Shown piece after piece: positions 12,511-13,106 of a DNA stretch of 45,585 nt (position 1 is the first letter of the stretch; each line of letters begins with the position of its first letter). Both the position numbers and the translations under genes were made by a program. The stretch comes from a virus. Its lineage: Duplodnaviria > Heunggongvirae > Uroviricota > Caudoviricetes. The notes under the pieces were generated by a model, which had not been told where the DNA came from, did no database searches, and saw nothing but the letters and a program-made list of their open reading frames with translations. The stretch is taken from IMG/VR virus record IMGVR_UViG_2582580752_000004. The stretch is one strand, 5' to 3'.

Positions 12511-12942
12511 ATGTTTGGAATCTTCAAAAAGAAAACCCGCAGAGCGGCAGCGGAAATTAAAAAGTTTGAGAAACGCGATCTGGCACAGGCGGTGATTAAC
12601 GCTGCATACCTGGTGGCCTATGCAGATGGTGAATGCGAGGCATCCGAGAAAGCGAAGATCGAACAGGTCTTACGTAATCAGCCTGCGTTGTCTGCGTTTA
12701 CCTCGGAAATTAATGCGATTAGCGCAACTATTATCGGTCAGCTGGATACCAATTTTAAAATTGGTCGTCGTGCCGCGTTACGCGAGATTGAGGATGTGAA
12801 ACACGATACGCGTGAAGCGGAAGATGTGCTGGATGTGGCGGTGGCCATTGCGGAGGCAGACGGCGAAATTGAGCCGGAAGAGCGCAAGGTGCTGGAAGAG
12901 ATTGCCGGTGTTCTGGGTCTTCGTCTGGAGAATTACCTGTGA
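12511..12942 (+). CDS. TerB-like (tellurite-resistance TerB domain) protein
   Basis: 143 aa; AAGGAA SD before MFGIFKKK; repeated acidic YADGE/EADGE motifs typical of TerB-type domains. Confidence 0.55.
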   Translation: MFGIFKKKTRRAAAEIKKFEKRDLAQAVINAAYLVAYADGECEASEKAKIEQVLRNQPALSAFTSEINAISATIIGQLDTNFKIGRRAALREIEDVKHDTREAEDVLDVAVAIAEADGEIEPEERKVLEEIAGVLGLRLENYL

Positions 12943-13106
12943 CGGTAAAACTGCGCCTGACTGTGGCTGCACTCCTGCTGTTTCTGGTGGTGATGGTGGA
13001 TTTCACCAGCAGAATCATGTCGGTGCTGGCGGATGGGGTGCTGGTCTGCGGCATTATGGTATTGCTGTGGCCGGTGATAAAAAGAAACAGCCTGCATAAT
13101 GCTTGA
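12939..13106 (+). CDS. Possible small hydrophobic membrane peptide (55 aa, GTG start overlapping the TerB-like stop)
   Basis: Hand translation VTVKLRLTVAALLLFLVVMVDFTSRIMSVLADGVLVCGIMVLLWPVIKRNSLHNA; not in the ORF track. Confidence 0.3.
   Translation: MTVKLRLTVAALLLFLVVMVDFTSRIMSVLADGVLVCGIMVLLWPVIKRNSLHNA

Follow-up and report, generated by a model that had tools for sequence, protein, structure and literature searches.

Which genes occupy the position at which stx would sit in a lambdoid prophage without stx, and what might they do for the phage? The question is raised by a locus in a caudoviricete virus record (IMG/VR IMGVR_UViG_2582580752_000004), of which the whole stretch of 45,585 nucleotides, called the window here, was analyzed. 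An initial annotation, made by reading the sequence, had placed a TerB-like protein and an overlapping small hydrophobic open reading frame (ORF) at this position and had suggested that they may be alternative cargo to stx. Based on matches to Pfam, PHROG and PDB entries, an AF2 model, homology and gene order shared with phage P1, and the names assigned by PGAP, the two genes are almost certainly a copy of tciA-tciB, a portable phage gene pair that was named in P1 and is already known. The PGAP names of the proteins in RM9872 (100% identity) are "TerB family protein" and "DUF3927 family protein", identical proteins are present in RefSeq, and the pair has already been annotated in phage JLK-2012, in the same Q-tRNA-...-nanS-p-lysis slot. 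The tci names in P1 were assigned 'by homology', and the literature searched yielded no study on the function of TciA, TciB or DUF3927.

The TciA and TciB proteins and their linkage

The first gene, tciA (12511..12942, + strand; ATG at 12511, TGA at 12940-12942), encodes a predicted cytoplasmic TerB-domain protein of 143 amino acids, and a Shine-Dalgarno-like AAGGA was recognized in the sequence 8 nt 5' of its ATG (12498..12502, + strand). An in-frame GTG further upstream, at 12439, would give a 167-aa ORF; it was rejected as the start because all TciA homologues begin with MFG, aligned with the ATG at 12511. In a profile search, TciA matched Pfam TerB (PF05099; E 2.3e-16, 60.6 bits against a gathering cut-off of 24.4 bits; profile positions 2-109 of 118), which bears out the TerB-like reading of the initial annotation. 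It also matched phrog_632 over its full length (E 6e-70), and residues 14-137 were aligned by phmmer with residues 20-144 of the Klebsiella TerB 2JXU (E 3.9e-8). The AF2 model of TciA (pLDDT 87.6, pTM 0.82) contains eight helices, and its top Foldseek matches in the PDB were 2H5N (probability 1.00, TM 0.55-0.62) and 2OU3, described as 'tellurite resistance protein of COG3793'. Since the Foldseek E-values were weak (best 1.1e-2), the family assignment comes mainly from the sequence profiles.

The first 22 residues of TciA form an amphipathic, basic helix with a net charge of +7, the remaining body (residues 23-143) is helical and acidic (-13), and no hydrophobic stretch was found by hydropathy in the 143 residues. 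The residues D23, D39, E46, E66, D95, D117 and E124 are invariant in TciA homologues. An aDG...E motif occurs twice (D39-G40...E46 and D117-G118...E124), and both occurrences show little or no variation among the phage homologues compared, 12 diverse and 22 closer ones. The duplicated acidic motif of TerB was reportedly proposed by Anantharaman et al. in 2012 to bind a metal. Judging from the sequences compared across genera, tciA is under purifying selection (dN/dS 0.019, with synonymous sites near saturation).

The second gene, tciB (12939..13106, + strand; GTG at 12939, TGA at 13104-13106), encodes a protein of 55 amino acids, predicted to form a DUF3927 two-helix membrane hairpin. As had been noted initially, its start shares four bases, GTGA (12939-12942), with the stop of tciA. 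A Shine-Dalgarno-like GGAG, likewise read from the sequence, lies within the 3' end of tciA, 8 nt before the GTG (12927..12930, + strand), and together with the GTGA overlap it makes up an arrangement for translational coupling of tciB to tciA. TciB matched DUF3927 (PF13064; E 1.7e-16, 60.4 bits, gathering cut-off 25 bits) and phrog_1470, 'TciB-like' (E 1.8e-29). The hydrophobic character claimed for it was recovered by hydropathy as two stretches, at about residues 5-21 and 26-47, and it thereby has the size and shape of DUF3927 proteins (about 50-60 aa, two hydrophobic helices). K/R residues flank the hydrophobic helices at both ends, and the N- and C-terminus are both predicted to be cytoplasmic. 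A DFTS turn is conserved, with D21, F22, S24 and D32 nearly invariant.

The linkage of tciA to a small membrane ORF was followed in two sets of loci. In 80 close IMG/VR loci, which were retrieved with a narrower alignment and represent only close E. coli relatives, a DUF3927 ORF directly 3' of tciA was found in 79. In the diverse set, which was taken from phage GenBank records and a scan of genome contigs, all 15 species-level loci have a small hydrophobic ORF whose start lies at -7 to 0 nt relative to the last base of the tciA stop. The tciB gene is also under purifying selection (dN/dS 0.24 across genera, with synonymous sites near saturation). The small ORF is thus conserved, and this dN/dS value and its position after tciA in 79/80 and 15/15 loci place it far beyond a chance ORF. 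The tciA/tciB junction takes the form of GTGA, TGATG or abutting genes in JLK-2012, Klebsiella phage 5 LV-2017, P1, Pollock and ChrisDB. In Pseudomonas phage AF and a P. juntendi prophage, the ORF joined to tciA by a GTGA overlap encodes an unrelated single-helix membrane protein, for which no Pfam family was found; therefore, the conserved theme is a TerB protein with a small membrane partner. No coupled membrane ORF is present beside the more distant phage TerB genes of PMBT3, phiM5 and Vibrio N4-like phages. Phage 434 contains a full-length tciB without tciA, and its partner there is a 247-aa membrane protein without a Pfam family. TciB alleles at 53-100% identity accompany TciA at 96-100%, a pairing that, as far as these alleles indicate, is unlike that expected from tight residue-level co-evolution. 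It is the gene linkage that suggests a contact between TciA and TciB. TerB-DUF3927 fusions (P0124, P0185, P0249 and P0288) were considered as evidence of interaction and rejected as frameshifted or chimeric gene calls.

The closest named relative is tciA-tciB(-tciC) of P1 (NC_005856 70233-70929). TciA is 43% identical to its P1 counterpart over the full length (E 2e-24), and for TciB the identity is about 55% across residues 21-51, where the DFTS...DG...WP pattern is shared. The gene order, the fused stop and start (TGATG in P1, GTGA here), the nearby tRNA genes and the families phrog_632 and phrog_1470 are common to both. They differ in that tciC is absent here: in a tblastn search of 12901-13500 with P1 TciC and the post-tciB ORFs of ChrisDB and Pollock, the best match had an E-value of 0.15 (ChrisDB). 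JLK-2012 is also without tciC. A further difference is that the pair belongs to the C1-repressed early ban operon in P1, whereas here it occupies the late interval between Q and the lysis genes.

The stx slot and the distribution of tciAB

The order of genes on the + strand is Q (9376-9756, PF06530), accessory genes, three tRNA genes (12090-12165, 12175-12251 and 12265-12341), tciAB, an STnc100-family sRNA gene, nanS-p (13421-15256; DUF1737, SASA and DUF6645) and the lysis genes, so that the pair lies between the last tRNA gene and nanS-p as originally described. The left border of the cassette is an intrinsic terminator after tRNA-Arg(tct) (12354..12381, + strand; 8-bp GC-rich stem and U-run, -14.6 kcal/mol), which is common to 933W and is there the 'terminator upstream of the stx genes'. 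On the right, the cassette is bordered by the STnc100-family gene (13111..13283, + strand; Rfam RF02076, 100.8 bits, E 2e-21, gathering score 47), which lies outside tciAB and is followed, ahead of nanS-p, by another intrinsic terminator (13308..13334, + strand; 8-bp stem with 7 GC pairs, U-run, -15.4 kcal/mol).

Comparison by blastn with the 933W, 75/02 and JLK-2012 loci delimited a tciAB cassette in place of the stx2AB of 933W (12390..13121, + strand). Homology to 933W covers the tRNA genes and terminator (12086-12389), stops, and restarts at 13122; the cassette therefore fills the stx2AB slot to the nucleotide, and the proposal that the pair sits at the stx position proved accurate. An STnc100-like segment is also found downstream of stxB in 933W and Shigella phage 75/02, and JLK-2012 shares 12317-13045 at 91% despite different upstream tRNAs. 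The cassette resembles stxAB of 933W and 75/02 in its identical slot, from the post-argO terminator to the STnc100-like segment upstream of nanS-p, and in comprising two short genes within the late transcript. The proteins are unrelated, however, and tciAB encodes no secreted toxin; unlike stx, it is also found at other positions and in other phage families. An stx gene adjoined tciA at none of 95 loci, and none is present in the window.

Of 5426 complete E. coli genomes, 798 carry the pair (median 3 copies); in EHEC genomes the median is likewise 3, with a maximum of 8. TciA homologues are present in 131 phage records. Virulent jumbo phages that infect Erwinia and Salmonella are among the carriers, as are N4-like phages of Escherichia, Salmonella and Vibrio and a lytic phage of Pseudomonas, PMBT3. 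Elsewhere, tciAB is located in the P1 ban operon, the P2-like and N4-like early regions and a jumbo-phage tRNA cluster. The order Q...tciAB...S/R is kept in prophages of Franconibacter, Pantoea, 'Enterobacter pulveris' and Pseudescherichia. Of the suggestion that tciAB is alternative cargo to stx, the part on position in the slot stands, but the pair also belongs to other transcription units and to virulent phages, which points to a function that serves the phage and not to lysogenic-conversion or virulence cargo. A functional link between tRNA genes and tciAB, suspected from this locus, JLK-2012, P1 and the tRNA cluster of ChrisDB, was not upheld: just 2 of the 15 species-level loci have a tRNA gene close by, the 1 kb upstream holds no tRNA gene in 18 of the 80 close loci, and the tRNAs of JLK-2012 do not resemble those of P1 (one shows 77% identity). 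The proximity is treated here as co-location in accessory-gene slots.

A consensus scan of 12390-12510 detected no sigma-70-like promoter, though a weak or non-canonical one could escape such a scan. Since no promoter was found and tciA lies behind a terminator, production mainly in the late, Q-dependent phase is probable: TciA would mostly be made during Q-antiterminated late read-through, like stx2 in 933W, and transcripts begun at the tRNA promoter might add a little. A holin or pinholin would be a small two-helix membrane protein required for lysis and encoded directly with the endolysin. The genes for lysozyme and Rz are found 6 kb further downstream, and a separate holin is annotated in relatives. 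In the prophage analyzed here, IS3 and IS110 insertions separate nanS-p from the lysis genes, so late read-through may no longer matter. No annotated lysis genes were present beside the tciAB copies of P1, N4-like and jumbo phages in the stretches examined. Expression is presumably late in the present slot and early in the P1, P2-like and N4-like settings, and phage types that differ in this way do not imply a role tied to one stage, for instance to the timing of lysis.

Possible functions of the pair

The reading preferred here, which we hold as plausible at slightly less than even confidence when all its steps are taken together, is that TciA and TciB form a membrane-tethered TerB module acting on the envelope of the infected cell. 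TerB was described as an amphitropic, membrane-associated protein with TerC as its partner. TciA resembles the TerB of the ter operon (Klebsiella, 2JXU) in Pfam family, size, full-length alignment and all-helical fold, and both are genetically tied to a membrane protein, TerC there and TciB here. They differ in that identity is low, terZ, A, C, D, E and F are not nearby here, TerC is a multi-pass protein in contrast to the 55-aa DUF3927 hairpin, and TciA is phage-borne. DjlA offers another parallel, since a transmembrane segment anchors its TerB-like domain to the inner membrane, as is predicted for TciA-TciB. Its central region was the best NCBIfam match (TciA 87-140 to DjlA 112-166, E 7e-7), although at 29 bits against a family cut-off of 162; TciA is without a J domain, and its putative anchor is a separate polypeptide.

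According to the proposed mechanism, TciB would insert in the inner membrane with both ends in the cytoplasm, and TciB and the basic amphipathic N-terminal helix of TciA would recruit TciA to the inner membrane face. The two proteins would then correspond, in minimal form, to the membrane unit that TerB and TerC make in ter operons, and TciA may bind a cation or ligand through its invariant acidic pairs (D39/E46 and D117/E124). The module would tune the envelope or membrane physiology of the infected cell for the benefit of the phage, and its function would be accessory and dispensable for plaque formation; by CRISPRi, tciA, tciB and tciC of P1 were scored as non-essential (PMC10695390). Its final output can be named with little confidence: the membrane may be buffered against early-lysis triggers such as colicins and superinfecting phage, or division may be blocked. 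A more specific and rather improbable version is a 'membrane guard' or counter-defence, in which a membrane-held TerB sensor would protect the membrane potential of the infected cell or, in an equivalent form, would neutralize colicins, superinfecting phages and those host defences that are TerB-based or target the membrane, and thus keep lysis from being triggered early. It would span both TciA-TciB and the unrelated single-helix partner of TciA in Pseudomonas phages and, if true, would explain the near-housekeeping constraint (dN/dS 0.02), the presence in virulent jumbo and N4-like phages and the multi-copy carriage in EHEC prophages.

Among other explanations, anti-phage defence or superinfection exclusion survives best, though we regard it as unlikely. 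TciA would be a membrane-surveillance sensor and TciB a small membrane-disrupting effector, and the two would protect the lysogen through abortive infection or exclusion, as a miniature of TerB-containing systems such as Dionysus, Bunzi or Shango. TerB domains do occur in these validated systems (SngA of Shango, BnzA of Bunzi, DinB of Dionysus) in association with membrane proteins, as in tciAB; DinB is partnered with a pore-forming membrane protein, and 'membrane surveillance' was proposed for their TerB components. The ter operons confer phage inhibition and colicin resistance, the source of the P1 tci name, and the terminators on both sides of the cassette (moron-like), the accessory neighbours CPBP protease, AraC-type regulator and hok/sok, and the small, hydrophobic and fast-evolving TciB are also what a defence locus might contain. 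The partner genes of the three systems are absent, however: neither a helicase, an ATPase or a pore-former is adjacent, nor are the MAEBL-domain protein and four-helix pore-former found here. In PADLOC-DB v2, TciA gave only PDC-S48 (E 0.0028, 14.8 bits, 35 residues), which is not significant, and TciB gave nothing, so that the link to phage defence raised in the initial annotation gained no backing. No promoter-like site for expression in the lysogen was found by the consensus scan of 12390-12510, the phage-borne pair or its TerB gene is common among obligately virulent phages, and the copy numbers in EHEC (median 3, up to 8) would be unusual for a dosage-sensitive abortive toxin.

An inhibitor of cell division, to which the 'i' in Tci would refer and which would block septation during phage development like Kil, DicB or Icd, is improbable. 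Filamentation in Y. pestis and E. coli results from terZAB and not terCDE (PMC4633105), but it was assigned to terZAB jointly and not to TerZ, TerA or TerB singly. The P1 tciABC genes lie in the C1-controlled ban operon together with a dicF-like region, and a preprint lists tciA/B/C beside icd and kilA among genes for division control, a grouping based purely on annotation; Pfam, NCBIfam and PHROGs revealed no similarity to FtsZ- or MinC-directed inhibitors.

Still harder to sustain is an anti-defence decoy, by which the phage TerB copy would titrate or poison the host ter 'Phi' phenotype, Shango, Bunzi or Dionysus. The presence of the gene in virulent phages, jumbo phages included, agrees with it, as Dionysus was reported to target jumbo phages, and the extreme constraint on TciA (dN/dS 0.019) fits a need to match a conserved host partner. 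TciA is only about 25-30% identical to ter-operon TerB, however, nothing ties its distribution to hosts carrying ter, Shango, Bunzi or Dionysus, and the membrane partner is unaccounted for.

A genuine tellurite-resistance determinant acquired as lysogenic-conversion cargo, as the database name 'tellurite resistance TerB family protein' would have it, can be practically dismissed, for terCDE accounts for the resistance, which in Y. pestis does not require terZAB (PMC4633105), the flanks here are tRNAs, an sRNA gene and nanS-p with no adjacent ter genes, and thus none of the terC, terD and terE that define a ter-operon resistance system beside terB, and the authors on PMBT3 concluded likewise for the lone terB of that phage.

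Implications for enterobacterial phages

As it stands, the identification adds little, the genes being annotated, named and abundant. What the comparison contributes is that the lambdoid stx slot is a precisely bounded exchange site, extending from the post-argO terminator to STnc100, in which tciAB can replace stx, and that tciAB is among the most constrained and most widely shared accessory gene pairs of enterobacterial phages. EHEC carries several copies and TerB domains recur in anti-phage systems; therefore, the genetics of tciAB could explain TerB at membranes, and the prophage copies of tciAB could bear on the colicin or phage sensitivity of pathogenic E. coli.

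The tciA-tciB pair and its products

The gene tciA (12511-12942, + strand) comprises 143 codons from an ATG at 12511 to a TGA at 12940-12942, and tciB (12939-13106, +) comprises 55 codons from a GTG at 12939, the two genes overlapping by four bases, GTGA. Shine-Dalgarno-like sequences lie 8 nt before each start (AAGGA, 12498-12502, and GGAG, 12927-12930, both +). In a profile search, TciA scored 60.6 bits for Pfam TerB (PF05099; cut-off 24.4); it also matched PHROG 632 end to end (E 6e-70), and its residues 14-137 aligned with the solved Klebsiella TerB structure 2JXU (E 3.9e-8). 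The AlphaFold2 model of TciA, computed from 22 homologues, is of high confidence (pLDDT 87.6, pTM 0.82) and contains eight helices, and its top Foldseek matches in the PDB were 2H5N and 2OU3 (COG3793, "tellurite resistance protein"), with weak E-values. Hydropathy analysis detected no hydrophobic segment in TciA, whose residues 1-22 form a basic amphipathic helix (+7) while the remainder has a net charge of -13.

TciB was assigned to Pfam DUF3927 (60.4 bits, cut-off 25) and to PHROG 1470, "TciB-like". Hydropathy indicated two hydrophobic helices (approximately residues 5-21 and 26-47) joined by a short DFTSR turn, with K/R at both flanks, and by the positive-inside rule both termini would be cytoplasmic. 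The initial annotation, which described a 143-aa TerB-like protein with its stop overlapped by a GTG-initiated 55-aa hydrophobic ORF in the stx position, is thus confirmed as an observation, and its interpretation is partly supported: the slot, the TerB identity and the membrane ORF are correct. TciB is fast-evolving except at D21, F22, S24 and D32. A single-sequence scan retrieved only 61 DUF3927-like clusters among 1.84 billion cluster representatives, and the family looks small within the reach of a 55-residue single-sequence query.

Distribution, coupling and selection

The tciAB cassette is known, named and abundant, and the feature had already been annotated. The P1 genes tciA and tciB are homologous to the window pair and are likewise adjacent and fused stop to start; a tciC-like gene was not found beside the window pair. 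P1 tciA, tciB and tciC were scored as non-essential in a genome-wide CRISPRi screen (PMC10695390). In phage JLK-2012 of E. coli O55:H7 the annotated order is Q, three tRNAs, tciA, tciB, yjhS (nanS-p) and S-R-Rz, and E. coli O145 RM9872 carries a pair 100% identical to that of the window, labelled "tellurite resistance TerB family protein" and "DUF3927 family protein" in RefSeq. Of 5426 complete E. coli genomes, 798 carry 12511-13106 at a coverage of at least 80%; the copy number per genome has a median of 3 and a maximum of 8.

TciA homologues were found in 131 GenBank phage records. They occur in the phage-plasmids P1, P7, D6 and SJ46 (the P1 pair lying in the C1-controlled early ban operon), in N4-like virulent phages such as Pollock and FSL SP-076 (in Pollock in the early region), among the tRNA genes of Erwinia and Salmonella jumbo phages, between Q and the endolysin gene in Klebsiella lambdoid phages, and in Pseudomonas, Vibrio and Sinorhizobium phages. 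When one genome per species was compared, the order Q, tciAB, holin/lysozyme was kept in prophages of Franconibacter, Pantoea, "Enterobacter pulveris" and Pseudescherichia; the Serratia tciA copy adjoins an integrase and a Cox-like gene, and that of Pectobacterium a CII-like regulator and a replication gene. These varied contexts indicate that tciAB is a portable two-gene cassette that uses whichever accessory slot is available.

The small ORF is conserved: 79 of 80 close IMG/VR loci have a DUF3927 ORF directly behind tciA. All 15 species-level loci have a small hydrophobic ORF whose start lies -7 to 0 nt relative to the end of the stop codon of tciA, and in 13 of them it is DUF3927-like. Phages as distant as P1, Pollock and ChrisDB show GTGA, TGATG, TAAATG or a 3-nt spacer at the junction. 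The coupled ORF is missing from more distant phage TerB genes. Median dN/dS across genera was 0.019 for tciA, with synonymous sites near saturation, and 0.24 for tciB, so both are real genes under purifying selection; the constraint on TciA is housekeeping-like.

Among the IMG/VR relatives (L015-L094), TciA proteins 96-100% identical are paired with TciB alleles only 53-100% identical. TciB thus comes in several divergent alleles, whose differences lie mainly in helix 1 and the C-terminal tail and imply either junction recombination or diversifying change in TciB. Apparent TerB-DUF3927 fusion proteins were rejected as frameshifts or chimeric gene calls. Full-length tciB without tciA is found in phage 434 (L007, 2441-2599), where it lies downstream of a gene for an unrelated membrane protein of 247 aa. 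Elsewhere in E. coli phages and genomes, tciB without tciA persists as truncated remnants that follow a tRNA or sit among IS elements (L110, 2465-2581; L006, 4130-4243).

In Pseudomonas phage AF (L010, 2932-3153) and a P. juntendi prophage (L106, 4441-4644), the GTGA overlap joins the TerB gene to a different ORF of 67-73 aa, with one N-terminal helix followed by a conserved C.WYGYQTER.T motif, for which no Pfam family was found. This ORF looks like a second family of phage-TerB partner, unrelated to DUF3927, and the shared coupling makes the conserved theme a TerB protein with a translationally coupled small membrane protein.

The stx slot and the late operon

The window is homologous to 933W over 12086-12389, which covers ileZ, argN, argO and the terminator labelled in 933W as "upstream of the stx genes"; homology returns over 13122-13247 and, once more, where nanS-p begins. 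933W carries stxA2-stxB2 where the window has tciAB, which places the pair in the stx position at nucleotide resolution, and in the Shigella Stx1 phage 75/02 the same right-hand segment directly follows stxB. These breaks, together with the identity of an STnc100-family sRNA gene right after tciB (13111-13283, +; Rfam RF02076, 100.8 bits), bound the cassette by an intrinsic terminator on the left (12354-12381, +) and by the sRNA gene and a second terminator (13308-13334, +) on the right. No stx homologue was found in the window or in 95 tciA-containing loci. The proposal of alternative cargo to stx holds only for position; the pair is not slot-specific, since TciA homologues occur in many other contexts, and a defence or virulence cargo role is not supported. 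In 933W and 75/02 the STnc100 segment comes right after stxB, and matches to it are found in many more E. coli genomes than matches to tciAB. STnc100 has been related to the PasD sRNAs in a 2026 preprint, which also notes TerB genes near PasA/PasC.

Three tRNA genes (12090-12341, ARAGORN; the first with anticodon CAT, tRNA-Ile in RefSeq) precede the pair, and in four unrelated phage types (P1, JLK-2012, Erwinia phage ChrisDB and the window) tciAB is found next to clustered tRNA genes or within the cluster. A general link to tRNAs was rejected, the association being present in 2 of 15 species-level loci and the JLK-2012 and P1 tRNAs not being homologous; the proximity probably reflects common use of accessory-gene slots.

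The pair is placed between Q (9376-9756, PF06530) and the lysis genes (lysozyme, 19050-19583; Rz, 20073-20540). No recognisable promoter was found in 12390-12510, and the putative tRNA promoter pT of 933W has its counterpart in a promoter-like site at 12051-12079. Other accessory genes of the Q-to-lysis interval include a CPBP/CAAX Rce1-like intramembrane protease gene immediately downstream of Q (9902-10726, +; GC 38%), without a PADLOC match; just upstream of the tRNA genes lies an AraC-family HTH regulator (11348-12061, +; 237 aa, GC 43%) with a good promoter-like site of its own (11285-11312, 10 of 12 matches). In the early-right region, a sok antitoxin RNA (7190-7364, +; Rfam RF01794, 107 bits) indicates a hok/sok type I toxin-antitoxin module, and an isrK-like match (7523-7604) is weak, under the gathering score.

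Downstream, nanS-p (13421-15256, +; 611 aa) carries DUF1737, SASA esterase and DUF6645 domains, and its alignment with relatives stops near residue 602. An IS3-family element (15282-16495, +; two ORFs, ALIL frameshift pseudoknot at 15563-15679) starts 26 bases past the nanS-p stop (15254-15256), and the C-terminus of nanS-p was possibly replaced by this insertion. An IS110-family transposase (16825-18069, -) follows; as the two elements separate nanS-p from the lysis genes, late transcription of the prophage may be disrupted.

Proposed role of tciAB

A literature search found no functional study of TciA, TciB or DUF3927. We propose that tciAB would be transcribed mainly via Q-dependent read-through, like stx2 in 933W, and that TciB may anchor TciA, or receive it, on the inner side of the membrane. 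This arrangement would have a parallel in the TerB-TerC unit of ter operons, and "amphitropic" behaviour of TerB has been described in the literature. The invariant acidic pairs of TciA could bind a cation or ligand, and the output would be an adjustment of envelope physiology benefiting the phage. That tciAB is present in many virulent phages speaks for a role that serves the phage, and less for one in lysogenic conversion.

A small abortive-infection or exclusion system would agree with the TerB domains of Shango, Bunzi and Dionysus, but PADLOC found nothing for the pair, which leaves the link to phage defence raised in the initial annotation without support from that search, and the partner genes of these systems are absent. 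A division inhibitor is another candidate, as terZAB causes filamentation (PMC4633105), and the pair could also act as an anti-defence decoy. That tciAB confers genuine tellurite resistance is unlikely, since this trait maps to terCDE (PMC4633105) and no ter genes lie near the pair. As a phage gene pair, tciAB is both very common and very strongly constrained.
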